A DNA stretch of 64,000 nucleotides, taken from NCBI GenBank assembly GCA_032718475.1, contig JAUCBJ010002800.1, positions 74,000 to 137,999 of the forward strand, read 5' to 3'. A model generated the notes under the pieces. The model saw nothing but the letters and a program-made list of their open reading frames with translations. It was not told the origin of the DNA and did not search any database. Below are positions 30,591 through 63,751 of the stretch, piece by piece; position 1 is the first letter of the stretch; the number at the start of each line of letters is the position of its first letter. The translations under genes and the position numbers were made by a program. Origin of the DNA: Nemertoderma westbladi (Eukaryota; Animalia; Xenacoelomorpha).

Positions 30591-30705
30591 TAAATCATTA
30601 AATAAATTTTACGACATAAACTTACATGATGTTTTCCGCGGCATTGGTAACATTGTTTACCTGAGTAGCAATCCCTCGCTGTATGCCTGGGTTTGAGGCA
30701 AATGA

Positions 30706-35480: not shown

Positions 35481-35490
35481 ATTTTATGAG

Positions 35491-38915: not shown

Positions 38916-39054
38916 TTAGTCTTTCTTACGCGGACGGCGTTTACGCAGTTTTTTGAGGCTAGCAAGAGTCCTTTTCTCTTTGGGGCGAGCCACTTTACTA
39001 GGAGGGCTGTAACTCCTGGGTGAAGGGTGCAATACAATTGCATCAGAAGGTTTA
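38916..39054 (-). CDS. Separated C-terminus of the element B exonuclease/zinc-knuckle ORF
   Basis: Joining across the TSD restores ...HNPK-PSDAIVLHPSPRSYSPPSKVARPKEKRTLASLKKLRKRRPRKKD* in frame. Confidence 0.85.
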
Positions 39055-39585
39055 TGTTAGCTTATCCAATCCCGCTAACACCCCATAAAGTTGTAAGCCG
39101 ATAAGCAATATTGGGAGCCACGAGATTGGGCAATTAACCAACTCGTGCCATCCCAATAAGAGTGGGAAGGAAGCACACAATAGAGGGTCAGGGGCCAAAC
39201 CCCTAACCCAGAGAGAACAGGTGGAGTGAACGGGAACACTCCACGGGGCGCCAACAAGGGTAACAACCAATCAGAGGGGGGCAAGGCATCGATTGAGTAG
39301 AGCAATAAGGCCACCGTGCAATATAACCAGTAACACAATGTCAGTAATTCAGTTATCTCAGTGCAGTGTAGGTTAGTTAGTTTAGATAGGGGAGCACGGG
39401 ACTTTAGTTACCGTATCCCGCCTTCCATAATTATACTACAGTCATCATATCTATATCTTATACCCATCAATTATTATACACCGAATATCAGAACTCATTC
39501 ACTATTTCCGTTTACTCTTTATACACGGCGGGGACGCGTAAACTAAACACCGGATAAATCGGGATCCCTCCTGGATCCTGTCACA
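39055..39585 (+). repeat. 5' LTR of element A
   Basis: TGTTAGCTTATCC...GGATCCTGTCACA; direct repeat of 49659-50190. Confidence 0.97.
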
Positions 39586-42600: not shown

Positions 42601-42970
42601 TACTGTAGGCCTTACTGCACATACCATAGGCCATACTGAGAGAGGCAATGTAGGCGATAGGATGGCGTGGACAACGGGATTAAACCCGGAAGTCGCGGAA
42701 TACATACCGGCGAGTAGGTCAGAAGCTGATAGGCCTATACCGGTACCAGCACAGCAGTATGACTACAGCATGCAGGGACATAACATATACCCAGGGGAGG
42801 GGGGAATTATTGCGGATAGGTGTATGGGCCCCAACATATTAACATCAACCCCAGTACCAAACATACCGGTGGGGGGGGGGGGGGGGACAGGGTGACATTC
42901 CCCCATCACAATATCAACAATATACCCCGATAGGAGCAAGAACAACGAGACCCTTAGATGAAAACAGGTC
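39652..42970 (+). pseudogene. Element A gag-region frame (low-complexity, coiled-coil and Asn-rich N-terminal part), broken by a TGA and by frameshifts at poly-G tracts
   Basis: 39652-40215 and 40333-41265 share a frame separated only by TGA 40213-40215. Later frame changes lie near G-runs at ~41226, ~41953, ~42001 and ~42871. No capsid or zinc-knuckle part is visible before the jump to pol. Confidence 0.6.
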
Positions 42971-44952
42971 GTGTGACACAGAGATATGGAGTTCCCAAGT
43001 TAGAATTGACAGCTGCGAGACTAGGAGTAAGAGCCACAGCCTACCTAGTGGATACTATTCCCAACATAGTGGAGACACACTACTGGACGGACTCCATGGT
43101 AGTGCTTGGTTGGCTACACAACGAAAAGACGAGATACCCGATATTCGTCGTGAATAGAGTGGACGAAATAAGGGCGGGCACAGAACTGGAAAGGTGGCAC
43201 TACTGCCCAACAGACGAGAACCCAGCGGACTTGCTGTCGAGGGGCGTGGAACGCCACACTTTCCTGAAGAAGGAAGTATTGTGGCAACATGGGCCACAAT
43301 TTCTAAGTGATAGGGAGGCCTGGCCGCCGATGAGGAAGGTGGACCCGGGCTCGGAAGTAGTATCAGAAGGAGAAGAGGGAGATTCAGAGGGAGAAGAGAT
43401 ATACTCCCAGATGGTGAGGGAGATTAGGGACGTGCAACCAGGAAGGGAACTGTGTGATAACCCAACGGATAAACTCCTCAGCTACAGTTCTAGTTGGTAT
43501 AAGACCAAGAAACTAGTGGCGTATTGGAGAGCCTTCGGGAATATCCTTGCGGGAGTCGGCAAGGACAAGAAGATCAGGACAACCATAGATCTGGAAGGAG
43601 CGGCCAAGGCAGTGATCCGCTATGAACAACGGAAGAACTACGGCGACGAGGTGGAACGCGTCGGTAACCAACAGCACCTCCGACGGGACAGCGAGCTGAT
43701 AACGCTGTCGCCACAACTCAATGACGACGGGATTCTAGTAATGAATTCTAGGGTGGGATACAACAACAGCATAGTGGTACCACCGAAACCCATCATCATT
43801 CCTACAGGATCGCCAATAGTCCACCAGATTATATGGGACTCCCACAAATCGATACTGCATGGGGGCACCAACCGAACCCTCACAGAGATAAGGAGGACCT
43901 ATTGGGTCAAACAATTAAGGAAGAAGGTTAAAGCGGTAGTGGGGCAGTGCCAGACCTGCCGACGAGCGAAGAAGGAACGAGCCGTACAGGAGATGGCGCC
44001 ACTACCGGCGAGTAGGGTAAGACAGCACGACCCGCCATTTACGCATTGCGGTGTGGACATGTTCGGGCCGATAAAGATCAAAGTGATGCGACACACGGAG
44101 AAACGCTACGGCATTATCTTCGTATGCAACAATACGCGGGCGGTAGGGATAGAACTCGCCCAAGATGCAACCGCATCAGCGTTCATTAACGCCTTAGAAA
44201 GGTTTAGGGACCGCAAAGGTGGGACGATCGCAGTGATATACAGCGACAACGGCACCAACTTTGTGGGCGCAGAGAGTGAGATGGCAGAGGGCTTGGACAT
44301 CTTGGAGGGAGAAGAAGTCAGGGCAGCCATGAGACGACGACAAGTAAAGTGGGAGAGAAGGACGCCGTGTGCACCACATACACTAGGATGCGTCGAGAGA
44401 CTGGTGGGCAGTTCAAAGCGTCTAATGACGAAGCTAATGAACACCCACATGGTCACTGAGGACGTTTTACGGACAGTACTTGCGAAGTGCGAGGGGATCA
44501 TTAATAGCAGACCGCTATATCCGGAGAATGATGACCCTGAGTCGTTAGACGTGCTGACGCCTAGCCATTTCCTGATGGAAAGGCCAGCGACCATCGATAT
44601 GCGGGGTGTAGACCCAGATGACATACACTCCCGCCAAAGTTGGAAAGTCGCTAAAGCAATAAGCGCAGAGTATTGGAGGAGGTGGGTCGAGGAATACCTA
44701 CCCACGCTCCATAAGCGAAGCAAGTGGAGGAAGCCGAACAGGGAGTTAAGAGAGGGAGATCTCGTAATCGTCACGGACGATACTATCATCAACAACCAAT
44801 GGCGGTTGGCGAGAGTTGTAGGCACCTACTCCGACGAGGACGGAAGAGTCCGATCGGTAGAAGTGCGAATAGGTGGAAAGATAGGTGCGAAGGACAGAAA
44901 AACTTACAGGAGAGCTGTAGGGAAATGCTGTCTTCTAGAAGGGGCACCTTAG
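42958..44952 (+). CDS. BEL/Pao pol C-terminal part: RNase H end, integrase zinc finger and core, DUF5641-like tail
   Basis: PKLELTAA, YWTDSMVVLGW, FVVNRV, NPADLLSRG, H..HGG...C..C, GVDMFGP, SDNGTNFVGA, GCVERL, INSRPL, LTPSHFL and W.LARV. Confidence 0.95.
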   Translation: MKTGRVTQRYGVPKLELTAARLGVRATAYLVDTIPNIVETHYWTDSMVVLGWLHNEKTRYPIFVVNRVDEIRAGTELERWHYCPTDENPADLLSRGVERHTFLKKEVLWQHGPQFLSDREAWPPMRKVDPGSEVVSEGEEGDSEGEEIYSQMVREIRDVQPGRELCDNPTDKLLSYSSSWYKTKKLVAYWRAFGNILAGVGKDKKIRTTIDLEGAAKAVIRYEQRKNYGDEVERVGNQQHLRRDSELITLSPQLNDDGILVMNSRVGYNNSIVVPPKPIIIPTGSPIVHQIIWDSHKSILHGGTNRTLTEIRRTYWVKQLRKKVKAVVGQCQTCRRAKKERAVQEMAPLPASRVRQHDPPFTHCGVDMFGPIKIKVMRHTEKRYGIIFVCNNTRAVGIELAQDATASAFINALERFRDRKGGTIAVIYSDNGTNFVGAESEMAEGLDILEGEEVRAAMRRRQVKWERRTPCAPHTLGCVERLVGSSKRLMTKLMNTHMVTEDVLRTVLAKCEGIINSRPLYPENDDPESLDVLTPSHFLMERPATIDMRGVDPDDIHSRQSWKVAKAISAEYWRRWVEEYLPTLHKRSKWRKPNRELREGDLVIVTDDTIINNQWRLARVVGTYSDEDGRVRSVEVRIGGKIGAKDRKTYRRAVGKCCLLEGAP

Positions 44953-46400: not shown

Positions 46401-48950
46401 ATGGCGAGTAAGTTGATCAGAAAGAGAAAGGCGGAGTCAGGAGGAAAGGAGATACTCGTGGATTTCACCGAGAGACATCCGGAAGAGAAGACGAGAGGAT
46501 ACTACGAGAGGTTGGAAAGGGGTCACGCGGCACGAGCGCTGCAGGATCACTTCCGGGAAGCGCACGAACAGCGGCTGGTCGGGACCTACAGGACCCCGTC
46601 GCTAGACAACGCGATCTTCCAACACTTCCACTACGTGGTGAAAGGGGACGAGGCGAAGTTCGGGATTCCGAAATACCCGAGGGAATCACCGAGGAAGGAC
46701 TGGAAGAGATTCATAGAGTCCGTCAACAGAGGAGGATATATGATCCTAGATGACGAGGGAACCGTGGAAGACGAGGCGGGTTCGAGACGAGGAACGGCAG
46801 GGTCGGCCAGGACCATACTCCTACATTTGGCCGCGCCAAATGGGGACATCTTCTTATTCGACCTAGGGACGTATGGGAAGAAGGACGGGCCGAAATTAGA
46901 CCGATTACCGAAAGCAGTACAGGTCTTAGTAAGAGAGAAGTCGACGACGAAAGTGGGATCGGCGATTCGCGAGGACGCGGAGAGGATCATCGGTCCGGAC
47001 GCCACCAACCTCCTGGATATGCAGAAGGTCTTTATGGCCATGACGGCACCGGATGGATTGGGGGTAGTCGAAAACACAGGCCAATGCGGGGCCGTGGCGA
47101 TGGGCCAATTATTGGGGCTCGTATGCCACAAACCGATGGAGTGGGGGAAGTTTAGGGAAGAATACGGAGCAGAACTAGCGAACTCGCTAAAGTGGGGAGC
47201 GAGACCGGGAAAGCAGGAGGTATATCAGTTCCGCAGGGGAGCGATAAAGGTATATCAGAAGCGATATATCCTGCAGGAGGACTGGATAATGATAAGTTTG
47301 CTTAACTTATTCATGACCGTGATTATCGAGAGGGAACCAGGGGCATTTCTGTTATCGGGATCATCCCTAAGCTACAGGAGAGCCTTTAAAGTGGCCTTTG
47401 ACGGTCTGGTAGACCACCCGGGGCTGAAGGGCGAGTCGGTGTACTACAACAGCCGACATCTGGTAGACGGGGAGACAGATACACCGTATCAGAGATGGGA
47501 GCAGCTAGAGATGGATAGACGAGAAGCAAAGCGACTGGAAGAAGTCGCTAGACGGGAGAGGATAGAAGCAGAAGAGAGGGAAGAGGAGGCCAGGGCACAG
47601 AGTTACGGCTTCGAGGAACAGGCGGGCCTAGACGAACTTCATTGGACTTCGTCAGGGAGTTCGGGGGAGTCTCTAGGGCGAGAATTGGGATGGACGGTGG
47701 GATCGCCAAAACAGTCGACGTCAGGGTTGCAAACGATGCCCATACCAGCGGGAGCCGAGGGCGACCAACCGCCAAGGAAGTTAAGGGAGCTAGAGGGATG
47801 GAGAGCTACGGGCGAGAGCCAAGGCGGGAAGGGACATAGTGGATCCATCGGGATACCGGGATTGGAGACACTACCAGAAGAGGAGGACGACGACGACGAG
47901 TTCGGAGAGATGCCGCCCATCGAGAGGATAGGCCACTCGGACACGGACTGGGTTGGCGGAAGGGTGGTGACGGCCAGTGGGGCGAGGGCCTTCTGGAACA
48001 GATCCGGCAAGCGGACCTGGGTGCACGAGGAGCCGGCGATGGATTTCGCGGGGAGCACCATCAGGTTGGGCGAGCAACCGGGGACGGCACCACGGATAGT
48101 ATTCGGGGAGACGATGCCCGAGAGGGGCGGAGAGATCGACGTAAACAGGGAGACCAACGTAGAGAAGTTCGCCTACCAGCGACTCCACAGACTGCGGAGA
48201 TCGCTTGGGACGAAAGACGAGGTGGGACGGGAGACATTGGTACTCGGCTGCGACTACTGTGGGAGACAGACCCATCGGAAAAGCAGCTGTCTATACCGGT
48301 TCCAAAAGGGAACCTTTTGTCTCTACTATAGAGAACCAAGCCACAGGATGGGGGCGTGTCCACGGTTGCATAACCGATGTCCAAAGTGCCACTTTCGGGG
48401 ACACTACGGACGCGAGTGCGACTGGATGAACGACGAGGAGAAGTTCACGAGATTCGAGGAGTGGGCCGACGTCGGGGCCATGACGCGCCAGCGCATGAAG
48501 GCCCAGGAGTTCAAGTGGGGTTTCTTCCTTATCAATCAGGAGACTCACATGGAAATCATAAAGCGGAGGCTACCGTTTACCTACCAAGAGGTAGCAACGG
48601 CGGCGTCGTACGCTGGAGTGATGAACACGCAAAGGTATCTGGACAGGTGGACGCCAGAGAACCGAAGGGAGTTTAGGGATTTCTTGGCGGAGCACGTACC
48701 AAAGGCAATGAAAATGATCCTATGGGACGCCACTAGAGGGAGACAACCGGGCCATTCTGAGGGGCCACCGGCGAAGCGATATCGGGCACTAATAACACCA
48801 GCGCCCAAGGAGCCAACGACCGGGATCAGCAAGGAAGTGGCGGCGAAGGTCCGAAAGCAGAAAGCGGATGATGCCAGAGGAACGGTGATAACCAAGAAAC
48901 GGCCCAGGGAAGAGGACACCAGGGGGAACTACCCCCGGAGGAACAGATAG
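46401..48950 (+). CDS. Extra ORF of element A: DEDDy-like 3'-5' exonuclease domain + CCHC-type zinc knuckles + basic tail (849 aa, intact)
   Basis: ILDDEG (ExoI), LPKAVQVLVREKSTTKVGSAIREDA (ExoII), LLDMQ and YILQE (ExoIII-like). Knuckles CDYCGRQTHRKSSC and CPKCHFRGHYGREC. Confidence 0.75.
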   Translation: MASKLIRKRKAESGGKEILVDFTERHPEEKTRGYYERLERGHAARALQDHFREAHEQRLVGTYRTPSLDNAIFQHFHYVVKGDEAKFGIPKYPRESPRKDWKRFIESVNRGGYMILDDEGTVEDEAGSRRGTAGSARTILLHLAAPNGDIFLFDLGTYGKKDGPKLDRLPKAVQVLVREKSTTKVGSAIREDAERIIGPDATNLLDMQKVFMAMTAPDGLGVVENTGQCGAVAMGQLLGLVCHKPMEWGKFREEYGAELANSLKWGARPGKQEVYQFRRGAIKVYQKRYILQEDWIMISLLNLFMTVIIEREPGAFLLSGSSLSYRRAFKVAFDGLVDHPGLKGESVYYNSRHLVDGETDTPYQRWEQLEMDRREAKRLEEVARRERIEAEEREEEARAQSYGFEEQAGLDELHWTSSGSSGESLGRELGWTVGSPKQSTSGLQTMPIPAGAEGDQPPRKLRELEGWRATGESQGGKGHSGSIGIPGLETLPEEEDDDDEFGEMPPIERIGHSDTDWVGGRVVTASGARAFWNRSGKRTWVHEEPAMDFAGSTIRLGEQPGTAPRIVFGETMPERGGEIDVNRETNVEKFAYQRLHRLRRSLGTKDEVGRETLVLGCDYCGRQTHRKSSCLYRFQKGTFCLYYREPSHRMGACPRLHNRCPKCHFRGHYGRECDWMNDEEKFTRFEEWADVGAMTRQRMKAQEFKWGFFLINQETHMEIIKRRLPFTYQEVATAASYAGVMNTQRYLDRWTPENRREFRDFLAEHVPKAMKMILWDATRGRQPGHSEGPPAKRYRALITPAPKEPTTGISKEVAAKVRKQKADDARGTVITKKRPREEDTRGNYPRRNR

Positions 48951-49649
48951 GTTCCCAGAGTCGAGGGAGAGAGACTGGGACTTGGATGTGGTACGCCTGG
49001 CAGGCGCCGCGCGGGATGTACGAACTATTAAGTACAAATTCAATTAATGCAAAATAATCATATAAGTGCAATTTGTATGTACGTACGTAGTAATTAGTAA
49101 TCTAGAAATATACATACGTTCGGAGTAAGTACTATAGTCATACAACCTTTCTCAATTAGCTACTGGGACTGGGGGATAATTGACTATGGCACTATGGACG
49201 AGACACCAGACAATTTCACACTTCTTGAGTGCGACGGCACGAGAGGGGGGGGAGATTCGTCAGAAGGGAAGAGGCAGTCGAAGTGAGGTTGAGGGACGGA
49301 ACAATAGTGCGGAGTGCGGAGAGAGTGCGGACGCAATTCTAGTGTGGGGGGGAGAATAAGAGGCTGAGCGAGGGACGAGGAGGTCCGAGTGTGAGAGAGT
49401 TAGGGTGAGAGTGGAGGTGAGATAGGGCGGAAGTGTTGGGGAAACAAAAGTTGCGTGAAAGGTGAGCGCGATCGGCCCGACATGAGACGCCAGGCACACA
49501 GGGTAGCGTTATCATACCCATAGGGGGCGGCCTGGAAAGCCGACCCCGAGAGAAAAGAATTCCACCCCACACCCGATACTAGATCGGGATCCAGCGGGAT
49601 TGTAGCGCACTTTTAGGTTGATGCTATCTTCTTACCGGGAAGATAGCAT

Positions 49650-49658
49650 GGGGGGGAG
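49650..49658 (+). promoter_or_regulatory. Polypurine tract of element A
   Basis: GGGGGGGAG immediately before the 3' LTR TG. Confidence 0.85.
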
Positions 49659-50190
49659 TGTTAGCTTATCCAATCCCGCTAACACCCCATAAAGTTGTAA
49701 GCCGATAAGCAATATTGGGAGCCACGAGATTGGGCAATTAACCAACTTGTGCCATCCCAATAAGAGTGGGAAGGAAGCACACAATAGAGGGTCAGGGGCC
49801 AAACCCCTAACCCAGAGAGAACAGGTGGAGTGAACGGGAACACTCCACGGGGCGCCAACAAGGGTAACAACCAATCAGAGGGGGGCAAGGCATCGATTGA
49901 GTAGAGCAATAAGGCCACCGTGCAATATAACCAGTAACACAATGTCAGTAATTCAGTTATCTCAGTGCAGTGTAGGTTAGTTAGTTTAGATAGGGGAGCA
50001 CGGGACTTTAGTTACCGTATCCCGCCTTCCATATATTATACTACAGTCATCATATCTATATCTTATACCCATCAATTATTATACACCGAATATCAGAACT
50101 CATTCACTATTTCCGTTTACTCTTTATACACGGCGGGGACGCGTAAACTAAACACCGGATAAATCGGGATCCCTCCTGGATCCCGTCACA
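49659..50190 (+). repeat. 3' LTR of element A
   Basis: Near-identical to 39055-39585 and followed by TSD GTTTA. Confidence 0.97.
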
Positions 50191-52291
50191 GTTTAGGATT
50201 ATGATCGGTGTATCCGCCGGTCGAGGTACCTGGTTGATCGATATCAACTTCAGTGGAGCGAGGTCTAACGGCCTTTATGGCGCGTCTTAGGACAGCAGCT
50301 CCTACGGGTCCTTGACGGGTCGTCTGGACAATGGCGGTAGGTGGACCGTGAGTGGTGAGAAACTTCCTCGGTTTAATGGTTCTTTCCAGCTCGCGTTCTC
50401 GGGCTCGATATTCGTAGGGCCGTCGAGATACTTCCTGTAACTCAGGGTGCGAGTTGATAAATAAATCGCCATACTCAGGGTCTTGACGGATGAAATTGAT
50501 CAAATGGTATGAAGTAATATCGTTAGGATTGACGTTCCTAAGATATTTTCGAACAAATTTGGTGGAAATACACTCACCAACACGCTTCATTAGTTCGTAA
50601 CTCGGTGTGCGTGTTTTTTGTTCCACAGACGCGAATAAATAAGGATGGAATGCGTAAACTCCCTCGTAAGAGCGTCCAGGGTAGTAGCGATGGCGGGACT
50701 CACAATGTAAATCCGCGTTCGCTTCCCAAGCTCGGATGTAGCGCAGGGTAATCATCTCATCTACGCTTTCTAAATCGCGGTTAAAGGGGCAATTATGACT
50801 GGCATGTCCTTTAAGTTGACAGTGGTGGCATTGGGTCATAAATTGGGGGCAGACTGCAAAAATATGCGAGTTATTAAGTCTGCAATACGCACAATAGATC
50901 TCCATCATCAGTTGTTCGTGGAAATAGGAGCAGGGTACGTCTGAGTCCATAGGGGTGAAATGGTCTCTCGATGCGCATAATCGACAACGTTTTCGAGAAA
51001 CATAGTTGGTGTGTCGATAATCGTATGCGGTGAGACATTGTGGACCTTGATACCACTCCAAGACGTAATCGTTATCGCTGCTCCGGGGCGCTGTAGGCTG
51101 GATCGCTTCAGATTCTAAGCATATTGGTTCGTCTTCCAATTGCATAGCTGAGGTAGGTGCGGCTGTCTCCGCAAGCGGACCCACTGTCTGAACTTCCACG
51201 ACAGAATAACCTGTGGGTATTCGGGGTCTTTGTATAACAGATGAATGTAAGTTCTGTATACAAACGTCCTGAAAGAGAGCAAATCCCGCGTTGTTTAGCT
51301 TCTCCGCAGCTGAGTCTCTTAGGCTGAGTTTGGTCAGAGCGCGGTCCTTGAACTGACTATCAACGTTACGGAACGGAGTCAGAAAGCGCCTGAAACATTC
51401 GAAGCGGATGAATTTATTGTGTTCATCTAACTTGGCGAGTTTGGTTCCAAGTATTAAGGGATGGGCGCGTATGGTACGACTGCACACATCGGCTAGCCAA
51501 CCGGCAAGTGCTGCGTTTTCAAAGATCGTGTATATAGCTAAGGAGGGACGAAGTGGAACACTCATAAAGCTATACACGGCGCCAGGTGCGGTCAATGGTC
51601 CATCAAAGTATAAACGAGAATAATAATCTCCATATGCTTGTTGGTAATTGATAGGATTTCCAACCTTGAAATTCCATCCGTATTCTTGAAAGGCAAGATG
51701 TCCGATGGAGGTTCGTTGTACTTTAGTAATGCCGCTGGGTGTATTGGCATACATAGTGCGGAAGAAACCTCGGCCTTCTGCCCAGGGAGCAATCAGCTGA
51801 GTATCAACGAAAGGGTATGGAATGTTCTCCATATTCCGAAAGTCGTTTTGTAGGTCTCCATAAACAGCTGAGCCGATTTTAAGGATTCTTTCGTTAAACA
51901 ACATCTCGAGCACGGGCTGGGGTAACATCGATCCATCGATACCCATGGCCGGTTTGCGCTCGTTGTCGGTGACGTAACGCTGCGCGAGTTCGAATTGTCC
52001 ATGTCGGAGTTTCCTTTGTGTCTCAGTAAGAGTTTCAAAAGAATAATCAATCACATCGGAACACGCTCGAGTAAATACGTGGGTAGAACCAGCGAGTCCT
52101 CGTATATGTATCATCCGCGTAGTTCCCAGTTCTCCAACCGGAACGCTACCTTCGTTATCGTAAGTGACAACTCCATACATCTCGATAACGTTAAGAGTTT
52201 CGTTCCACTCTTTAGTGGCGTTTTCGAGGGTCATTCCCACTGGATGCCACAAGGTAGCGCATTCGCTTGCATTAGGTAGATCTCTATACTT
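50191..52291 (-). CDS. Element B extra ORF, exonuclease + zinc-knuckle portion, interrupted at its 3' end by element A
   Basis: VTYDNEG, LPQPVLEMLFNERILKIGSAVYGDL, FVDTQ and YTIFE. Knuckles CAYCRLNNSHIFAVC and CHHCQLKGHASHNC. The ORF-track stop at 50186 lies inside the element A LTR. Confidence 0.75.
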
Positions 52292-54310
52292 TCAATATTG
52301 TGTGGTATATGTTTCCACATCTCCATATCGTTGTATTCTTTCCTCCTCGAATAACACGTCAAGATTCCAGTGTACTAATCGAGTTTTGATGAATCCATCA
52401 AGATTATACGGAGGTATTGTTTCTTTCTCTATTCTGGAAACATTATATGGTTTTCGAAATGAGTTTATTTTAACTAACTGATCCAGATGTTTCTGCAGTT
52501 GTTCGAGCTCGACAAGATCGAGAGGATTTATGAGTGGTAGAAACCTCAGACTATGTGTAGGATCTTCTGGTTTTACCATGTAATATTGTGTTAGATTGAC
52601 GTAATAAGGGTGATCTTTGATCCCATAAAACGAGTCCGGTAAAGGTCTAGCGCGTATGTTTACATCGTGTACCATGCGACGGACAAGATCCGCTCTATTG
52701 TCCGGAGGTTCAACGAGTATACCATCGACACGAGCGGCTTCGATGGGCGGACGTTGCAACATGGGAGCGTCAGCGATAAGATCTCGAGATCTTAGGTTGA
52801 TATCAACCGGTTGGGGTTGTACCGTCGCAAAGAGTTTGTCTCCGAAATTGGGAACCATCGAGGGATGAAGGATGGTTTTAGAGTAGAGATCCGTCATAAG
52901 GATTTGAGCTTCGGGTTGAGCTAAAGCTGCTTCTTCTCTCTCATCTAGTTCTATATGTCTCTCCTCGAGCAGATTTTCCTCCGCTTGTTGTTGTAGACGC
53001 TCATCTAGGAACTCTTGTAAAGAGTAGGTTCGTCCACGTTCGATGTCCTCCTCGAGATTTTGTATTTCTCTATCGAACTGGGGTAAAGCTAATTCCTTCA
53101 CCGCTTGGACTTGTTGTTGCAATTTACGTTTCTCCAAACAATCGTAAGTTCCCTTTCCGATTTTCTGCCGAATAGCGTCTAACGCGTTTCGTATGACGCT
53201 CTCTTCGACTTCCGTAACGGGTTGGATCGAGGTGAAGCCGGGACAGTTGTATGGGTTAAACGGCGATATTAGATGACCGCGTCCCAATCCAGCTAAGTAG
53301 GGTTGGCGAATATCTAGTGAGCCTACTACCGGAGTGCCACCGATCAACTGTTCGGGTAACACTAGATCTTTGAACAGTGAGTACAGTTCGGGAGGATCCG
53401 TGATACTATTAGGATCAAGAGTCTGAGGTCTAACTGAGGGATGAGGAGGTCTGACCGAGTATTCCGGAACTCTGATCATTGGTTTATTCAAGGATCGTTT
53501 GAGCCGAGCGACCGTAGTTGATACGTCGAATAGGTTTCGCTCGAAACTCCCATAAGTATATCGTGTAAAACTGTGTTTAGCGCAACGTCTCCGCGGATGT
53601 TTATGTCTTTCCGTTTGCTGATTGGGTCTAGGGCATTCGTCGCAGTAATACCAAAGACGCACGTCCTGCAGGGGAAACGCGGGTGATCGTTCTCCAGTTT
53701 TACAATATTCCTCCATCTGTTCGAAGCTATCTGGGACGACAGGTAGCGGTCGATCGGCGGTAAGATACATCATAGTGAAATAGAGTCGTTTGAGTTCTAT
53801 CATAGGATCGTGATGTATACCTTGAGGATATCGAGTTTCGAGATTTTGTTGGCTGGCAATATTGAGATATGTCTCTCTCAGGAATTCCAGATAATCGTTG
53901 AAGTCGCTGCGTTTATCCGGCTCTTCAACGTCTTCCCTTTCGAGTCTGTTTCGAATAGAGTTCTCGTGTTCTATTCTCGGTTTATCGTTCCGACTCCGCT
54001 GGGTATGATATTTAAATAAAACCATTTCCCTTTCGGTGTCTACGTCGTCCGTATCGTGTAAATCGATAGGATGGCCAGTAGTTAAGAAGTCCATATACGT
54101 ACCATTACGATGCGTATAGCGAGCGGTGAACTTTCGATAGTCCAATTCACGCGTAAGTTGCTCCTGGGACATTGGCGGTTCGATATAACGACCATCATCC
54201 TCCGTAGTAGTTGGACCAGCGTCGCCGCGTATCAAGCTATCGACAAACGCTTGTAAAGGTAGAGTATATCGCTCCCTGATACCAAGATCATCTTCTATCA
54301 ACTCAGTCAT
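52292..54310 (-). CDS. Element B extra ORF, N-terminal 672-aa portion of unknown function
   Basis: Long open frame, in frame with the downstream exonuclease portion across a single TGA. Contains a CDEC...H...C..H cluster and a coiled-coil-like stretch. Confidence 0.6.
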   Translation of the reverse strand: MTELIEDDLGIRERYTLPLQAFVDSLIRGDAGPTTTEDDGRYIEPPMSQEQLTRELDYRKFTARYTHRNGTYMDFLTTGHPIDLHDTDDVDTEREMVLFKYHTQRSRNDKPRIEHENSIRNRLEREDVEEPDKRSDFNDYLEFLRETYLNIASQQNLETRYPQGIHHDPMIELKRLYFTMMYLTADRPLPVVPDSFEQMEEYCKTGERSPAFPLQDVRLWYYCDECPRPNQQTERHKHPRRRCAKHSFTRYTYGSFERNLFDVSTTVARLKRSLNKPMIRVPEYSVRPPHPSVRPQTLDPNSITDPPELYSLFKDLVLPEQLIGGTPVVGSLDIRQPYLAGLGRGHLISPFNPYNCPGFTSIQPVTEVEESVIRNALDAIRQKIGKGTYDCLEKRKLQQQVQAVKELALPQFDREIQNLEEDIERGRTYSLQEFLDERLQQQAEENLLEERHIELDEREEAALAQPEAQILMTDLYSKTILHPSMVPNFGDKLFATVQPQPVDINLRSRDLIADAPMLQRPPIEAARVDGILVEPPDNRADLVRRMVHDVNIRARPLPDSFYGIKDHPYYVNLTQYYMVKPEDPTHSLRFLPLINPLDLVELEQLQKHLDQLVKINSFRKPYNVSRIEKETIPPYNLDGFIKTRLVHWNLDVLFEEERIQRYGDVETYTTQY

Positions 54311-55130
54311 ATCTGCTATGAGTTTATCAATATTATAATGAGTTTATATATTAGGCTAGCGGGCGTCGCTGCCTACCCCTCTTTTGCCCCCGGACAGTGC
54401 AAGATCCTCAGCGCCGATGTACCATCGTCGCTGTGCTTTCGCCAACGATGTAGCTACACAACGACAATGATAACCGGCACAAGTCACTCCACTGTCCGTC
54501 CCAAAGGCTTAGATGTACTTCAGGTTCTTTCTGGAGAGTTAGGGCTACTTTCACAATTGCGACTAGCTACTGTAAACACACTTTAGCAGTAACATTCACC
54601 TATGAACGCACAAATTCAACACAACTGCCACAAACTGTACACATTCGGGTCATTTGTCCGTTAGTCAGTACCTTCCAGAATGTCACTTTATGTATTATGT
54701 ATCCTTGGATACTAGCAGTGCGCTATTTATTCCCTATGCTATTCAATGGGGCAAGCTTTCTATTGTTCTTTTAACTCACTTCTAATTCTAGCGTGGTTGT
54801 TGCCATGGTGACATTATGGAAAGCTAGCGGTAGAATTAGGGTAATTCTCATGCATACAGATCTGGGATGCTATTTAATAGTAATTCTTTAATGGTCAATA
54901 TCCTCTCTATACATGATTTTATGAATTTTATCGGCTATTGACTATATTGGAGATTCTCGCACACAAATACGCTTAATAGAGTGAATCTCCGCTCCCATGA
55001 TCTATTAATTAATGGAATTTTGGGAATGTTATAAATTGTATAAAAATGACAATTTATTAAATTCATTGAAATATATGAATTTAAATTTATTCCTGTAAAT
55101 TTTATTATTTAATGTTAAATAGACACAATT

Positions 55131-55389
55131 TTATTCCAGAACGTGTCTGGGGACTGGGATCCTTGATTCTAGGAATTTTGTCTTTTTAAGAATATCGGTA
55201 AGTGCTACGATATCTTAATCGACTAGAATTTTAAAGGATCTAAATTTCGACAGATTTTGTAAATATTAATAATTAATATTTAGGATGGGCACCAGTTTAT
55301 TCCAGAACTTGTCTGGGGACGTTAACCACTGATTCTAGAATTTTGTCTTTCAAGTATATCGGTGGGTGCCGCGATATCTTAATCGACTA
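55131..55389. repeat. Diverged ~93-bp direct repeat (two copies ~166 bp apart) in the element B spacer
   Basis: TTATTCCAGAAC.TGTCTGGGGAC...GATATCTTAATCGACTA at ~55131 and ~55297. Confidence 0.8.
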
Positions 55390-55943
55390 TAATTGCAGAT
55401 AGTCAAAGGGTTTAACAGATTTATTTTGCGTTATACGCTACTGTTAAAGGGACATCACGCTACTATATGTATTATTTAATATACGGTATGAGAGCAATAT
55501 CGCATGAAGCAATGTCAGTGAGAAGAGGCAAGTCGTTTCCAAGGTCTACCCAGAGCTTGGTTTAGCCGAGACACGAGGATCTGAATTTTGCATTCCTAAT
55601 ACTCTACTTACCAATAATACTTGAATATAGTAGGAGCTTTATTGTACTTTAATAAGTACGGATATTTCATCTTACTGTAGTTACGTATTTGTAATGTAAT
55701 ACGGACAGTAAGGAAGGAGAAAAAGAATTATTTCTCGCCGTCGCACTAAATATATAATATATAAGTAATTAAGTAATAAACGCGAATATATATTGCACTA
55801 ATCTACTAAATAATCGCTAAAATAACATTCTGCTAAATAAAATTAAAGAAAACGATTATAATAAAATTACATAATAATATATACATAAATATAAAATGAT
55901 AAGAATATAAAATAATCTGGTCACACACCCACTCCATACGCTA

Positions 55944-58900
55944 CTAAGCTGGGGAGTCCCTAGATGTTAGGGAGGTGGTCGTGGGAAGAGTATCTTGTCT
56001 TCCATAGTTTCCGGAGAGTTCTCTGTCTCTTTCCAGTAAACATAAGCGACCAACTGGGCGATTGAGCTGCTGTGTCTCGAAGACAATTCCCGGTTTCTTG
56101 AAGTTACGTCGCATGACGACGAGTTCTACCGATCGCACCAAACCGTCATCCGAGATGTGAGTCTCGATGATACGACCTGTCTGCCACCGCTTACGTGGAA
56201 GATCTGCATCCACAATAAGGACCATGTCTCCAGCGCTGACGTTTTCTTGCTGCGCAAACCACTTAGTTCGAAGTTGTAGCGTGGGCAGATAATGTTTTTC
56301 GAAATGGTCAGCGAAACGACGGGATAACAACTGCATGAGTTGCCAAGTTTGCCGGCAGTATTCGTCTCCGTCTGTGATTTCCGATTGTGGGAGCATGGCT
56401 ACAGGTTTCTTCAGTAGGAAGTGCGCGGGTGTTAGCGCTTCCAGGGAATCGGGACTCGATGAGACTGGCATAAGCGGTCTCTCGTTGAGATAGGCAGCGA
56501 TTTCCTCCATTAACGTCCGCAAAAGTTCGTCGGTGAGATACGCGCGGCACGGCACTATAAAGTGAAATGCGGTCTTCACACTTCTTATTAATCTCTCCCA
56601 ACTTCCTCCCCACCAAGGGGCGTCGGCGGCGTTGAAGGTCCAGCTAGACACTGTTACTCGTAGCTGATCGTCCACCTGTCTTTGGTTCCAATCTTTGACG
56701 TAAGCTTTGATTTCATTGTTGGCACCAATGAAGTTTGTTCCCTTATCAGATCTCATCGTGTTACTAGTTCCAAAGCGAGCGATCTGTCGTCGTAAGCTTA
56801 ATAGGAAGCTGTTGGTAGATAAATCGTTCACCATATCGAGATGGATAGCTCTGCAAGTCATACAAACAAAGATGACGCACCATCTCTTGACTATAGTCCT
56901 AGCACGATATACTTCAATAAGGCCAAATAAATCCACACCGGTATTAGTAAAGGGTGGTTCATAGAAGCTTACTCGTTCCCTAGGTAATTCTGCCTCTCGC
57001 TGTGTTAAAGGCCTACTGAATGCTTCCCTACAGGGTATGCAGTTCCTAAGAACTTGGTTCAGAGCTCTACGGGGTTTATAAAAATAATAGCGAGTTCGAA
57101 TTTCGCTAAGAACTCGTTCTCTACCAGCATGATAAAGTTTGCTGTGAACATCTACAATCATCTTGACTTGTATTTCAAGATTTCTAATGAGTATGGGAAA
57201 CTTAGTGTCAAAGGATAATGGAGCATTTGTTAATCTTCCTCCAACACCTATCAACCCATCTATCATTGTGCTAGAGAAACGATCCCTTAAGCGCATTTGT
57301 GGATTTCTCAACAACAGGAAATACTTATCGGAATCCTCATAGCATTGCAGGAGTCTCAGCATCTGCTTGTTGGTTTCTTCATGCTCCTGATAACTGATCT
57401 TCTCCTTCAGAAACTTGTTGGATATCTTATATTTGGGAAGATCTTTAACAACATGGACCTGCACCGATGTCAGCGGAGCGGTATCACTATTGGTCTTCAT
57501 CCCGGAGTAGTGATGGTGAAAACATCTTTTTAAATATGTAACAGCTTTACAGAGCCGATTCCAGGAACTGTAGTGATGTATCGCTCTCTGCAGGAGAGGT
57601 GAGAGTCCTTGCGAGACGTCTGGTATTCCAGATTTCCAATCCTTCTCACGGATTTCCACTACAGACTTATTTGTGGCTGTGGGTTTCTGATCCAAAGCGT
57701 CGTCTCCGGAAGTATGTAGTACAGACAGATCTACCATAGGTTTAAATAACTTCGATTTACTCGCTCGAGTTTTAGGTTTGACTTTCTCCACTCCCTTGGC
57801 CTGTCTAATCTCTGCTGTAGTAAGATGAGGAGGCCATTCTTTTTCTTCTTTGTAGAGGAAGTCGGGTCCACCTAACCAGTCTGGAGTATCTACCAGTTCT
57901 TGTGGAGTTGCTCCCCTGGAGGTGATGTCTGCTGGATTGATCGTTCCGGGGCAATGTCTCCATTGATCCATCGGCGTGCGACTGAGTATAATAGCTACTC
58001 TGTTAGTAACGAAGACGCTGAACTGACAGACTTCATTGGTTATATACTCCAACACGAGTAAAGCATCAGTCCAATAGACAGTTTTCTCCAGTGGGTAGTC
58101 GATCTGTTCTGTTACATTCCGGCCGATGGCTGTAGCGTATAGAGCCGCTTTTAACTCCGCTCGAGGAACTTTCAACTTGTTGTTTATCAATGCCTTAGAG
58201 GTAACCAAGGCGACTTTGATTCCATCCGGAGTTTCCACTCTTAGGTAGGCTACTATACCTATTCCCATATCGCTGGCGTCTCCAAACACATGGAATTGAT
58301 AGGAATACGTAGGGAGAACATGACCAAAATATGAACGGGAAATTATAAAGTTCTCGATGGCTGGTAGAGAATCTTCCCATTTCATCCACTCCTTTAATAA
58401 TTCTCCCTTAAGTGGATCGTCCCATGAGTGGTTTTCAAGCCACATTTGTTGTACTAAACTCCGAGCAATCAATATAACTGGGCTAATAAATCCCAATGGA
58501 TCGAAATAAGTGCTCAGGATACTTAAACAAATCCGTTTAGTCCGAACTGGATTATCTCGCTGTTTTAGCTGGAAAAACAGGATATCTCTCTCTGTGTCCC
58601 ATTTCAAACCAAGTGTCTTGGTTTCTGGAAGATCATCTTTGATTAGATCCAGGTCTTTCGCTCCTCGATCTTCTACCGGGATCGACTCCAGAAACTCACG
58701 GGAGTTGCTGGTGAATTTAGTTAATCGAAATCCACCTCTTTTTAAGCACTCTACCGTTCCTTTATGGATATCAATGGCTTCATCGACTGATGGAAGGGAC
58801 TTTAGATTGTCGTCCATGTATATATCCCGTTTGATGTTGTCAATCACCTCTTTAGAGAAGGCTTCTCGGTTGTCATCCGCAGTGGTGCGCACCACTGAAC

Positions 58901-59385
58901 AGGCGTTTGAAGGGCTTGAGATTATCCCAAAGGCCTGGATGGTCATCCAGTACTCCACCGGTTTCTGGTTGAGGTCTCCTTCAGGCCACCACAGAAATCG
59001 TAGGCTATCTCGATCCCTATCCAGCGCCTTGACTTGTAAGAACATGCCTTCTATATCTGAGGCGAAAGCGATTGAATATTGTCTTAATCTTAAGAGTATT
59101 CCCAACAAGGATTGGAGTAAGTTGGGTCCGGGTAACAATTCGGAATTAAGTGATTGGCCCATATAGAGGGCGGAGCCGTCAAACACCACTCGTACTTCGT
59201 GGGGTTTACCGGGTTTGGGAACGTAATGGTGAGTTAAATAATACGTTCTGTCAGTTATAGGTGTTTCTTCCGGCACTCGCTCCGCATATCCCTTGCTAAT
59301 AAATTTCCTCAACTGCGTTTGATACATTTCTTTAGCTGAAGAATTTGCCGTAAGGCGTCGATGTAGTTGAGCAATTTGTTGCCGT
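55944..59385 (-). CDS. BEL/Pao pol of element B: RT, RNase H and integrase (protease and gag absent)
   Basis: YYLTHHYV, RVVFDGS, SLNSELLPGP, DIEGMFLQV, LRFLW, YMDD, FDPLG, FGDAS, PRAEL, WTDA, NPADITSRG, GVDLFG, SDKGTNF and GGSWERL. The frame is open from ~59385. Confidence 0.96.
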
Positions 59386-59693
59386 TATTCCTACACCAGG
59401 GGGGAAAAACGCTGATGCTGGAGACGTGACTTAACAGACCACCGAGCCCCGGCCAGTCACCGGATATTGATTGTGGGGAGGGAATATTTTCTAAGATGCA
59501 AGTTTGCGGTTGAGAAAAGCTGCATTAGTTGGATATACTCTTTAATGTAACTGAACTCTGTTGAACCTTGTTCAACAATATTGAACCTTGATTAAGAATA
59601 ATTTTGGGCTTCCCCAAATCAATATACACCAAATATTCACAATAAGTATACACGATAATATAAATCCCTACGGTATATTATTTAATAACCCGC

Positions 59694-60984
59694 TGTTCGC
59701 TCAGAATTTTAGCCTACCTAATGTTCCCCAGATTTTCCCTCGGTCCTAGTCCTAGTGCCGTAGTGTCGGTGTCGGTCGACCCTGTCGTGTGTCCGTTCCA
59801 CCCCACACGAACCCCGAAGGGAACGATCATCGAGAACCAGCACGGCTTGGCTAAGGGTCGGTCCAGTCGGTAGACTCTGTCGCGTATCCGTACCACCCCT
59901 CTCGAACCCCGAAGGGTTCGGTCATCGAGAACCAGTACGGCTTGGCTAGGAGTCTGTCGTGTCGGTGGACCCGTTCGCGTGTCCGTTCCACCCCTCACGA
60001 ACCCCGAAGGGTTCGATCATCGAGAACCAGAACGGCTTGGCTAGGGGTCCGTCAGTTCATCACAGAAACCCAACCACCTAGGCTTTCCGAGTCCGTTTCA
60101 GGCTCGTAGTCGCTTCGGCAGCCGAGAAACTGCTCCGAACAGTCGGTAGGCCAGTAGAGTCTAGTCGAGTCTAGTCCTTTGTCTTTCGACCCCATCGCGT
60201 GTCCGTTCCACCCCTCACGAACCCCGAAGGGAACGATCATCGAGAACCAGAACGGCTTGGCTAAGGGGTCTGTCGTCGGTTCCCGTCGCAAATCCCAGTC
60301 AAGCAGTCAGCGTTCCGAGTTCTTTTCAGGCTCGTAGTAGCTGCCGTTGACCCGAGACCGCTAAGGGCAGTCCTTGTCAAACCAGTCCTGTGGCCAGCCC
60401 TTTCGCATGTCCGTCCCACCCCTCACGAACCCCGAAGGGATCGGTCATCGAGAACCAGTACGGCTTAGGTCAGGGGGCAGTCGTTAGTTGGCCACCTGTT
60501 CGCGTGTCCGCTCCACCCCTCACGAACCCCGGGGTTCGATCATCGAGAACCAGAACGGCTTGGCTACTAAGGGGCCGTCGGTGCCCGTCGCAAATCCCTG
60601 ACACAAGCAGTCAGCGTTCCGAGTTCTTTTCAGTCTCGTAGTAGCTGCCGTTGGCCAGGGACCGCTAAGGGCAGTCCTTGTCCTTTAGGCCTGGCGCATT
60701 ACCAAATCCACCCCTACAGGCAGCAGGAAGTTGGCCAGGGCCTAATAGTACTCAGGCTAACCTGAATACTGCTTGCATTTTCCATCCCTCCCTGGCCCTT
60801 ATAACTATGAAATTATTCCCGTACCCTGTAAGTTGCCCCAAAGTTCGCCCATAAATCGCCCCCAGTTTATTGAATGTGCCCAAAACCCATGGTCCCGCAC
60901 CCAGTAGTAATATCGGAATAATCAATTTTAAATAAATACAAAAATATTCAACTCGCGTTATGGAAAGTTGAAATACCGCGAACA
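59694..60984 (-). repeat. 3' LTR of element C, with internal ~95-bp repeats
   Basis: 7-bp inverted termini TGTTCGC...GCGAACA, preceded on the minus strand by PPT GGGGGGGAC (60985-60993). Six copies of a GTCCG..CACCCCTCACGAACCCCGAAGGG..CGATCATCGAGAACCAG unit. Confidence 0.8.
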
Positions 60985-61150
60985 GTCCCCCCCAATGACC
61001 TTCGTGAAGTCTGTCGGTCGATTGAGTTTGCGTAGGTCATTCCCAATATAAAAAATCCCAAATTTAATATTGCATAGTTTTTAATTAATTTGGCCTAGAG
61101 TTTGTATAAAAATAAATGTTCGATAAATGTTCCTGGAATATCCCAATCCA

Positions 61151-63751
61151 TTATTTCTTTTTCTGGTACGCCTTTCGTCTCTTCGCCCGTCGACTCTCAT
61201 CGATCGCTATGGCTGGTAGAGGAGCGTCAACATCCATTGTGAGTAACGCTTCGGCTTGTCTCCTGGCGGCTCTTCCTTTCGAAGGCAACGGTATCATGTC
61301 GGTTCGTCTTTCCAACTCGGAGTTGCGTGCCTCTAGGAACCATTCTCCGTCACCGAACTCCTCTTTATACGAATATAATCGTCTAATAACTTCGAATGGA
61401 CCGAATAATCCGGCGCTCAGTAGCAGATCCACGTAATGGAAGGGTAGCGAGGCCGACGTGTGGAGGCGTTCCGGGAAGGAGAAATATCCGCACGCCATCT
61501 CCTGCGCGATATTCCGAGCGTTTCTCCGAAACTTGGTCTTTAAGTGGCTGTTTGCGTATGTCTCAAACATGACCATATTGCCCATAGCGGTAACGTCTTT
61601 GGTTGGACATTTAATATAGCAGCGGGGGCTAGCGGAATGTCCACGGAAACCGCACGTGGTGCAGAGGTTATAAAGGATCGGACAGACCGAAACGTCGTGG
61701 CCCGATATCGCGCAGTATGGGCAATAGAGTATCCCGAGGAGCTGGAGGCAAGAATCGGTAACCCGATTCCTTCTGCTGCGTGGGCACTGCTCCGAACCGC
61801 AGTCGCCGCATACCTCCAACTGCATCTCTCGACCGGGGAATATCGGAATCGGGACGCCGGCGTAGTATTCGAGTCGTCGGTCGCTCTTCGGAATATTCTC
61901 GGTGGTCGGTAGCCCGCGGAATGCTAGGCTTTTGCGTAGTATGTTCTCGCTTCGATAACCCTCTTTGTGTCCCGCTGGTCTCAACTCGGATGACCGTTTC
62001 TGGCGGTGGATCCATTCAGTTTGCCCGGCGTACCAACGGGTTAGTCGCATAGGGTCCTGAGGAACGGCGGGTGTAGTAGCTACCGCTGGTCGGCGAAGAG
62101 GTGCCGGGGTTTTCGACGGAGGGATACCGAGGAGATCGTCGGGTGTCGGCGCATCGCTGGGGCCTTCCTCGACCAGTATCGCTGAGCGGGTCCGTTGTTG
62201 GCTGGTACTCGGAATCTCCGACGACCAATCTTCGCCGCCCGGGAAAGGATACGGGGATAACCGTTGGCATATGTCGCCGAAGTCGCTCAATGCGGCTGTA
62301 GTGGCTACCTCTCTCGCGGGGCTACCGGAGCCGCGTGGGGTGTAGACGCCTGCTCTCTTCATCGGTTCGGCCGAGGCAACCCGTTTGGCGGCCGGTCCGT
62401 ACGCGGCCTCCGGCTCGAGTTGTCGCTTCGGGGTGGAGAGTAGAACACCCTCGTTTAGCCATATCTCTTCCCCTTCCGAGGAGATCAGAGGCTCCTCCGC
62501 ACCGAGAAGTTCGGTAATCGTAGGGATGTCGTAAGGTCCGCTCTCGTCCCAGGAATCGATAACGGCGGGCGTTTTCGATTCTCCCGGTGTAATGTTCTCG
62601 ACCGCTTTAAACGCGTGGTTTATAACCTCATTCCAGTCGTAGTCGACGAAGGAAAGGGGGACCGCCGTAATAAGGTTATCGAGAGTTTTACAGATAAACT
62701 TAGCGACGGTGTAGCATTCCATAACGACGTAAACGTAGTTCCGTCGATCGGGATTCTCCCATCTTTGGTGTGTCGTCCATTTCCGATCAACGTCCTTCCA
62801 TCGACCCTCTCGCTCGCTCTTTATTTCCAATCCCGGGTATCCACCGTATATTTTATTATAGTCCCGGAATTTCTGGGGTTTGAAGTCGATACCGCCGTTT
62901 AGCACAGCGAGGTAGCCGATCCCGGATTTCGTCGGTCTCACTTCTTGGAATCCTCGCATGAATTCGGCGAATCTTAACCAGGCTAGCAGCGTTTGAGTGT
63001 CGATGCAATGGCTAAGTGCGTTGAGGTCGTTTCGTCGGTTTCTTCCTGCGGGAGCGTTCGCGTAGTCGTTCCGGACGTCCGCCTTGATATCCGACCCGAT
63101 TTTAATGACGTCGAAGTCGAAGAGGATCTTTTGGATTTCCGGAGGCAGCAACCAGATCGCTCCGGCTGCCTGCACTTCCTGTCTGGGTGTCGGGAATATT
63201 CGGCACACCAGTACCAAACCGTCCAGGGTTCCGAGGACGACGACTAAGGATCGACCGTATTCTTTCGCCCCGTACTTTTCCTGGTAGTCGTCGCGGTTTT
63301 GGATAATCGATACGCGTTCCTCTCGAAGCGTCGCCGTACACTCCGACAGGTTTCCCCAGTGGGCGAGGTATGTACTCTTGTCGTCGACGAAACTCTGACA
63401 TCTCGCCAACGTAATCGCCTTCGAGGTGGGCGTCGCGTTTCCCTCGTTGTCGTAGATCAAACATCGGGATCTGTAGACGCTCTGCCGGAACGTTTCCCAA
63501 AACGACGAATCGTCCCCTCCGGTTGCCTTTGCGTTCCGAGTTCTTTTCAGTCTCGTACTAGCATCGGCTAACCGGAGGGCTCGTAGATTCTTAGAATCTG
63601 GTCCCTCTCGCCCGGTGAATTTAATGACTCGCACGTTCTCATTTAGTAGGGTGCTCCAATTCGTATCAAAGTCAGGGGATCTGGGTTGCGAATATTCCAG
63701 TAGATCTACCGTGTTACGTAATTCGCCGATAATTTGGCGATTTGGGTCCAT
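61151..63751 (-). CDS. Extra ORF of element C: DEDDy-like 3'-5' exonuclease + CCHC-type zinc knuckles + basic tail (866 aa, intact)
   Basis: LIYDNEG, LPPEIQKILFDFDVIKIGSDIKADV, CIDTQ and YVVME. Knuckles CPYCAISGHDVSVC and CTTCGFRGHSASPRC. Ends RRAKRRKAYQKKK. Confidence 0.75.
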   Translation of the reverse strand: MDPNRQIIGELRNTVDLLEYSQPRSPDFDTNWSTLLNENVRVIKFTGREGPDSKNLRALRLADASTRLKRTRNAKATGGDDSSFWETFRQSVYRSRCLIYDNEGNATPTSKAITLARCQSFVDDKSTYLAHWGNLSECTATLREERVSIIQNRDDYQEKYGAKEYGRSLVVVLGTLDGLVLVCRIFPTPRQEVQAAGAIWLLPPEIQKILFDFDVIKIGSDIKADVRNDYANAPAGRNRRNDLNALSHCIDTQTLLAWLRFAEFMRGFQEVRPTKSGIGYLAVLNGGIDFKPQKFRDYNKIYGGYPGLEIKSEREGRWKDVDRKWTTHQRWENPDRRNYVYVVMECYTVAKFICKTLDNLITAVPLSFVDYDWNEVINHAFKAVENITPGESKTPAVIDSWDESGPYDIPTITELLGAEEPLISSEGEEIWLNEGVLLSTPKRQLEPEAAYGPAAKRVASAEPMKRAGVYTPRGSGSPAREVATTAALSDFGDICQRLSPYPFPGGEDWSSEIPSTSQQRTRSAILVEEGPSDAPTPDDLLGIPPSKTPAPLRRPAVATTPAVPQDPMRLTRWYAGQTEWIHRQKRSSELRPAGHKEGYRSENILRKSLAFRGLPTTENIPKSDRRLEYYAGVPIPIFPGREMQLEVCGDCGSEQCPRSRRNRVTDSCLQLLGILYCPYCAISGHDVSVCPILYNLCTTCGFRGHSASPRCYIKCPTKDVTAMGNMVMFETYANSHLKTKFRRNARNIAQEMACGYFSFPERLHTSASLPFHYVDLLLSAGLFGPFEVIRRLYSYKEEFGDGEWFLEARNSELERRTDMIPLPSKGRAARRQAEALLTMDVDAPLPAIAIDESRRAKRRKAYQKKK

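Follow-up and report, generated by a model that had tools for sequence, protein, structure and literature searches.

The DNA analysed here, referred to throughout as the window, is a stretch of 64,000 nucleotides from Nemertoderma westbladi (Xenacoelomorpha; assembly GCA_032718475.1, contig JAUCBJ010002800.1, positions 74,000 to 137,999, forward strand), and coordinates count from its first base. It contains three related open reading frames (ORFs), A, B and C, each lying in a long terminal repeat (LTR) retroelement or remnant that bears the same letter. An earlier note, made from the letters of the sequence, had proposed that three distinct BEL/Pao-type elements carry a gene for an exonuclease with zinc knuckles in the position of an envelope (env) gene. 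As predicted by profiles and structure models, the domain in question is an RNase H-like DnaQ fold of the DEDDy exonuclease type (EXD2/RNase D-type). The gene is old, widespread, under purifying selection and carried by a BEL/Pao lineage.

The three window proteins are homologous, with pairwise BLASTP E-values of 7e-11, 6e-10 and 8e-6. A profile built without them scores A, B and C at 211, 134 and 186 bits, and shuffled versions (200 of each) reached at most 3.2 bits. Homologs of ORF A and ORF C were also sought by word-indexed search, and no match was found. An unindexed search with a profile of the three sequences retrieved 210 clusters at E≤0.001, 29 of them at 1e-10. From the 150 of these 210 clusters that were listed, 81 relatives, mostly matching both ends, were aligned with the window proteins to give the alignment A3. 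Searched against the PDB, the A3 profile matched EXD2 best (E=3.7e-18), followed by Egalitarian (6.9e-8) and WRN (5.3e-4). The RNase D of Trypanosoma brucei (TbRND) was matched over a knuckle stretch (9.5e-8) as well as over an exonuclease stretch (1.8e-4). Narrower queries of the PDB, by phmmer with ORF A alone or with the three-sequence profile, found no significant match, EXD2 appearing at E=1.5 with the latter.

Structure comparison points to the same fold. Residues 95-320 of ORF A lie beside PF01612 clusters in the ESM Atlas (score 0.94; 34% of the cluster members carry PF01612). Single-sequence structure prediction reached a predicted local distance difference test score (pLDDT) of only 34 and gave no usable model. 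An AlphaFold model of ORF A had a mean pLDDT of 67.6 and a predicted template modelling score of 0.52, with values mostly between 80 and 96 across two domains and low values in the linker. With this model Foldseek returned 18 matches at E≤0.001. All 41 matches listed are DEDD-type exonucleases or polymerases bearing one, and the viral matches agree; TbRND ranks first, and EXD2, Egalitarian, Nibbler and EXD1 are further neighbours.

In A3 the catalytic columns D117, E119, D192 and D/E293 (numbered after ORF A) are all acidic in 58 of the 74 ungapped rows, 10 of the 84 rows being gapped. The canonical set D-x-E, D, Y-x3-D is found in 46 of the 74, and Glu takes the last position in six, which include the window genes. 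A DEDD or DEDE motif is present in 52 rows, and four have E at the third position. The C-terminal module has a helical part and, in tandem, three CCHC knuckles. Its ten Cys/His positions are kept in 79-84 of the 84 rows, and the knuckle Cys/His are the best-kept positions of the whole alignment. A disordered linker of 100-400 residues separates the knuckles from the exonuclease. The zinc knuckles and the DEDDy/WRN-EXD-type fold named in the earlier note are thus borne out, the fold by the ESM Atlas, by the A3 profile against the PDB and by AlphaFold with Foldseek on ORF A, and its motif blocks are all present, in the order it gave, in the three ORFs.

The features of the window are collected in the table. 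The three ORFs lie where the earlier note had placed them, and A and C are intact. Element A is the most complete: its two LTRs agree at 529 of 531 aligned bases, it is flanked by a target duplication of 5 bp (GTTTA), and its pol is of Pao type by the Pfam families Peptidase_A17 and DUF5641. At the place of the tRNA primer-binding site, after the 5' LTR, it reads GTAACT and not TGG, which is consistent with an internally deleted copy; a relative (L023) has a TGG site 3' of its LTR.

Features of the window and readthrough cassettes of relatives. Positions are those of the window, except in the last row (locus:position).
Feature	Position	Strand	Remarks
ORF A	46401-48950	+	intact, 849 amino acids (aa); exonuclease/zinc-knuckle gene
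ORF A, predicted DEDDy-fold domain	46695-47336 (~aa 99-312)	+	D117, E119, D192, Y289, E293
ORF A, triple CCHC knuckle and conserved helical module	48225-48635 (~aa 609-745)	+	middle knuckle without one Cys
Element A, 5' LTR (TG...CA)	39055-39585	+	target duplication GTTTA at 39050-39054 and 50191-50195
Element A, pol fragment	42958-44952	+	RNase H end/Peptidase_A17, H2C2, integrase core, DUF5641; reverse transcriptase (RT) absent; stop TAG
Element A, polypurine tract (PPT)	49650-49658	+	
Element A, 3' LTR	49659-50190	+	
Element B, pol, RT to integrase, Pao type	55944-59384	-	5' side cut at end of element C LTR-like region; stop TAG
ORF B, main part	50191-54310	-	broken by insertion of element A
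ORF B, exonuclease domain	~52225-51467	-	
ORF B, knuckles	~50986-50672	-	
ORF B, basic tail	38916-39049	-	on far side of element A
Element B, tentative 3' LTR (TG...CA)	~38189-38837	-	short purine tract before it at 38845-38838
ORF C	61151-63751	-	intact, 866 aa
ORF C, exonuclease domain	~63511-62666	-	
ORF C, knuckles	~61834-61442	-	
Element C, PPT	60985-60993	-	
Element C, LTR-like region	59430-60984	-	TGTT at 60984; internal 95-97 bp repeats; adjoins element B pol; far end approximate
Readthrough cassettes of relatives (among others)	L007:1234, L034:4374(-), L037:6645, L065:6736, L066:3843(-), L068:5645		

The pol of element B likewise carries Peptidase_A17 and DUF5641, and its homology to other Pao pols ends at 59384; pols of this type run in the order PR-RT-RH-IN. 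ORF A starts 1.45 kb and ORF B 1.63 kb past the pol stop of the respective element, in agreement with the spacer of about 1.5 kb described earlier. The main part of ORF B was confirmed, with its tail at 39049-38916, and we add an in-frame stop at 52292-52294 that the earlier note did not mention. Contigs covering this stop codon differ there from the window copy, so that the stop looks private to it. Contigs of the sequencing runs X1 and X2 join 39049 directly to 50191, which indicates other B copies without the insertion of A. Elements A and B are both multi-copy in sequencing runs of organism A (a label distinct from element A). The 672-aa N-terminal extension of ORF B had no relative among the retrieved ORFs and proteins or in Pfam; the extension (54310-52295) contains a Cys/His cluster. 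N-terminal extensions of 500-950 residues occur in some other family members (L005, L051, L043, L015), and L005 and L051 share theirs.

Element C has neither a pol nor a second LTR within the window, which ends 249 bases upstream of ORF C. Of the three BEL/Pao elements claimed before, two are thus established as such, A and B, both with a Pao pol, and the membership of C is inferred from the family-wide linkage to Pao pol. A PPT and 3' LTR had also been reported after each ORF. The full set of TG...CA LTRs, target duplication and PPT is present in A; B and C have a PPT and an LTR-like start, and the LTR of B is tentative, with no second copy within the window. Between 38500 and 58400, A lies within the accessory gene of B, and C adjoins the pol of B, so that, within 25 kb, three elements that share this cargo are nested.

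Further repeats and genes lie elsewhere in the window. In an 842-aa frame (30748-33276, minus strand) a piece of Pao gag (DUF1759) is joined to an RT of the non-LTR type (RVT_1, DUF6451), probably a long interspersed nuclear element inserted in frame, and a second copy of this non-LTR RT, 97.8% identical, lies at 25392-26532. Two uninterrupted host-like ORFs stand among the repeats on the minus strand, one for a tRNA m1G methyltransferase (21487-22710; PF01746, E=2e-13) and one for a DUF1308/DUF5614 protein (23748-24893). A 30-bp satellite with higher-order repeats fills about 20 kb (1-20271), a 200-bp tandem array occupies 35479-37417, and a partly palindromic repeat of 43/143 bp lies at 29698-30591 and 34468-35484.

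The linkage of the gene to Pao pol extends far beyond the window. A scan of metagenomes with a degenerate knuckle-motif pattern gave at least 120 loci (about 300 are estimated), 80 of them with long flanks. The family profile matched 118 of the 120, and 60 have the exonuclease domain. A Pao pol lies upstream on the same strand in 38 of these 60 exonuclease loci, in 32 of the 38 with at least 1.5 kb of upstream sequence and in 27 of the 29 with at least 3.5 kb, the loci being mostly drawn from few related accession series. Thirty neighbouring ORFs were compared with Pfam. Peptidase_A17 is present in 24 of the 25 long pols among them, and DUF5641 is found in the 25th and in one fragment; the remainder are one downstream ORF with generic integrase domains only and three without a match. 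An upstream pol of a non-Pao class was not seen among the metagenome loci. A strict PPT pattern follows the gene on its 3' side in 11 of 66 relatives and in 0 of 66 on the opposite strand. Family elements reach 10-11 kb, and overall protein identity is about 20%. One locus (L022:5187-10931) has about 5.7 kb between direct repeats with the exonuclease gene and no Pao pol match, possibly a non-autonomous element. Scans of viral contigs found no relatives, and Pao control elements were likewise not found there.

Consistent with long-standing association, the gene tree and the integrase tree agree (rho 0.86; 31 elements, L066 excluded), and none of 2000 permutations was as good. For the exonuclease domain, 12 of 13 overlapping pairs have a ratio of nonsynonymous to synonymous substitution (dN/dS, Nei-Gojobori) of 0.04-0.48, the remaining pair being saturated; these values are biased down by the protein-guided alignment, since the looser flanks score below 1 too. 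The earlier claims that the gene follows Pao pol and is old and selected are therefore upheld, and the comparison of trees that had been suggested now supports them. The named BEL/Pao subclades are Pao, Sinbad, Bel, Tas, Suzu, Flow and Dan. A pol tree was built with 35 further Pao pols that had been selected as close to B. The pols of A and B fall among these, next to sequences from cnidarians, echinoderms, fish and molluscs, and the 22 metagenome elements lie apart from them. The exonuclease label, scored for A, B and the 22 metagenome elements, needs two changes on this tree, and one clade is not rejected (approximately unbiased test, p=0.23).

The position of the gene could suggest that it is env-like, as known extra BEL/Pao genes are (PMC8742986; also PMC13524379), or else a host gene that was captured and is carried as a functionless passenger. 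A crude hydropathy scan, on which our agreement with the earlier note about missing envelope-like features is based, gave no clear membrane segment: the 19-residue maximum is 1.1-1.5 for A and B, and that of ORF C, 2.08, falls at a predicted core strand. This result, together with the exonuclease fold, purifying selection and co-divergence with the integrase, argues against an envelope or passenger gene, which we consider very improbable and largely excluded.

How the protein is made appears to differ between relatives. In 10 of 38, the gene is in frame with pol behind a single stop codon and an open link of 120-240 codons, against 0.26 expected by composition. Such a link occurs in 9 of 14 relatives with a UGA-C stop versus 1 of 24 others (Fisher p 1e-4, which overstates the significance as the readthrough loci are kin). 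Stop contexts include UGA-CGG and UGA-CAA-UUA, both known readthrough motifs, and the type II pattern has a 3' stem 8-12 nt downstream (PMC3159437). The cassette after pol consists of UGA-C, a 9-nt spacer, a 9-bp stem, a 7-nt bulge with an invariant UCGG and a 5-bp hairpin. In six in-register hairpins 96% of the cells pair and 10 of 14 pairs are compensatory; in slid controls 36-43% of the cells pair. The UCGG bulge occurs unchanged in two reading frames and therefore looks like an RNA-level signal. Fusion of pol and exonuclease by type II UGA readthrough is predicted from these patterns in many relatives.

The explanation we favour, tentatively and with a confidence just short of even, is that the DEDDy exonuclease and the knuckles act on the element's own RNA or cDNA intermediates. 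By analogy with TbRND, the knuckles would hold single-stranded RNA and feed its 3' end into the exonuclease pocket. The protein would trim the element's own RNA, or reverse-transcription intermediates, at the 3' end, and dead variants would only grip; we infer both RNA binding and trimming from this analogy. In many relatives the readthrough product would be carried into the particle with Gag-Pol, and it is this predicted fusion that points to the element's own nucleoprotein as the site of action. In A and B the protein would be expressed separately, probably via a spliced or subgenomic RNA, because stop-rich spacers of about 1.5 kb follow their pols. The ATG of ORF A is preceded, at about 20 nt, by the acceptor-like sequence TTGCAG.

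Several observations weigh against this explanation. PF01612, with which a comparison had been proposed in the earlier note, was not matched by any of the three window proteins in Pfam at E≤1. Only 6 of 67 relatives match it (E 6e-5 to 0.084), the best at 23.3 bits with a cut-off of 23.6. All three window genes have Glu instead of Asp at the fourth catalytic position, so that their activity is a prediction. The pols of A and B end in TAG, and the readthrough signal is absent there. Where it is present, the six covarying hairpins were picked from 15 for equal length, only 6 of the 15 cassettes fold singly at a z-score below -2, and the readthrough loci are related by kinship and not independent cases. 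Upstream of their exonuclease domain the in-frame relatives contain a Met, at a distance of about 24 residues in several of them, so that they may make the protein on its own as well. Moreover, the catalytic set is missing in 20 of 42 full exonuclease domains of the loci. Catalytic residues are lost in 11 of 13 UGA-C genes with a full domain versus 9 of 29 others (some by alignment slip), whereas L029 and L076 are in frame with pol and catalytically intact. Catalysis therefore seems dispensable in places, and most fused versions would be dead. Finally, two related Pao elements (L047:3341-6529 and L059:6880-9648) carry triple knuckles in a long ORF without an exonuclease match.

These dead and knuckle-only forms favour a different role, namely that of a non-catalytic adaptor in which the knuckles and the exonuclease shell bind genomic RNA for export, localisation or packaging, any cutting being secondary. 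A whole clade lacks catalytic residues and is nevertheless conserved, with exonuclease dN/dS of 0.04-0.48 in six pairs of dead domains. The knuckle module varies less than the active site, and L047 and L059 retain it without an exonuclease match. Egalitarian, whose EXO domain is dead, is among the top profile and fold matches, and CERV of Cer1 provides a precedent (PMC10309623). The basic tails could be nuclear signals. On the other hand, the acidic set is complete in 58 of the 74 rows at about 20% identity, and in all window genes, which speaks for selection of catalysis in most lineages. We regard an adaptor role of this kind as rather unlikely, below the counter-defence considered next.

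As a separate cytoplasmic factor, the protein could trim, degrade or sequester PIWI-interacting and small interfering RNAs (piRNAs, siRNAs) or their precursors, or compete with host DEDD proteins (Nibbler/MUT-7, EXD1), and so weaken silencing of the element. Nibbler and EXD1 are among its fold neighbours, TbRND trims small guide RNAs (PMC7797062), and the arenavirus ExoN suppresses innate signalling (PMC7968707). In A, B and many relatives the gene in the env slot is an ORF of its own, and dead versions could still sequester RNA. However, the predicted Gag-Pol fusion and the strict co-divergence with the integrase are easier to reconcile with a role in the particle of the element itself than with a diffusible public good, and dN/dS, as a domain-wide average, indicates conservation and not an arms race. 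Counter-defence is thus unlikely in our view, but it is the strongest of the alternatives to action on the element's own RNA or cDNA.

The most far-reaching form of the favoured explanation is a deep BEL/Pao branch with a standing 3'-5' exonuclease, packaged into particles of some members as a Gag-Pol-exonuclease and turned into a dead RNA clamp in one subclade. We consider this doubtful, with odds slightly poorer than those of the adaptor. If true, this would be the first case of an LTR retroelement with an end-trimming or proofreading nuclease in its particle. LTR retrotransposons are not known to require a 3'-5' exonuclease. The published LTR case that we found, that of the Ty3/gypsy-type elements Juno and Vesta of rotifers, looked recent and lineage-specific, whereas here the gene defines a large BEL/Pao lineage. 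In the family, active-looking, dead and knuckle-only forms make up a natural series, and there is a compact readthrough hairpin with covariation. With these it becomes testable whether a retroelement uses an exonuclease on its own RNA/cDNA ends or against small-RNA silencing, and by what route a gene of the env slot enters the particle. The family also warns against naming third ORFs of BEL/Pao elements env from their position.

Among cellular proteins, TbRND (PDB 7C42/7C45) is a close parallel in architecture and the top Foldseek match: a DEDDy exonuclease, a linker and tandem CCHC fingers follow in that order, and its four fingers bind RNA and are required for trimming (PMC7797062). TbRND is a cellular guide-RNA trimmer with four fingers and a short linker, whereas the present proteins have three knuckles, a linker of 100-400 residues and an extra helical module and belong to a mobile element. 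EXD2, WRN-exo, Egalitarian, Nibbler and EXD1 share the fold, EXD2 being the closest solved structure by sequence, but these are host genes without the knuckle module.

Among mobile elements, the profile of the Belpaoviridae by the International Committee on Taxonomy of Viruses names gag, pol and env-like genes only (PMC8742986). Env-like third genes of the family, F-like in Roo and gB-like in mosquito elements, occupy the same slot between pol and the PPT/3' LTR (PMC8742986; PMC13524379); they are membrane glycoproteins, in contrast to the soluble nuclease-fold protein of the window genes. In the plant copia element SIRE1 an env-like ORF is expressed through stop codon suppression (cited in PMC2829016). 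As in SIRE1, a single stop codon separates pol from the extra ORF in the in-frame metagenome relatives, though not in A or B; unlike the BEL/Pao exonuclease, the cargo of SIRE1 is env-like. We found no report of a BEL/Pao exonuclease in the open literature; Repbase, GyDB, Dfam and supplements lay outside this search, so that an entry may exist. The word exonuclease has 0 occurrences in the main texts of PMC3118150, PMC13524379 and PMC2774666.

The statement of the earlier note that no description of such a cargo was known is not supported. DEDDy exonuclease ORF3s in the env slot were published in 2017 for the bdelloid rotifer LTR retrotransposons Juno and Vesta, and DEDDy exonucleases also occur in Athena/Terminon elements (Rodriguez, Kenefick, Arkhipova 2017, PMC5408684). 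The DEDDy exonuclease is cited as a known accessory domain in PMC6338049 and PMC6431247. The rotifer ORF3 exonucleases have the motif DEED and were judged recent acquisitions, and the paper treats Juno and Vesta apart from BEL/Pao (PMC5408684). Both systems have an RNase D-like DEDDy exonuclease as a non-env ORF after pol and no transmembrane segment (here by hydropathy scan) or coiled-coil, the candidate roles proposed there match those discussed here, and activity is predicted in both. The present family differs in its BEL/Pao host, DEDD or DEDE motif, triple CCHC knuckles, deep co-divergence with the integrase, dead-enzyme clade and predicted readthrough. New here, it appears, are the BEL/Pao lineage, the architecture with triple knuckles, and the readthrough and dead-enzyme variants.

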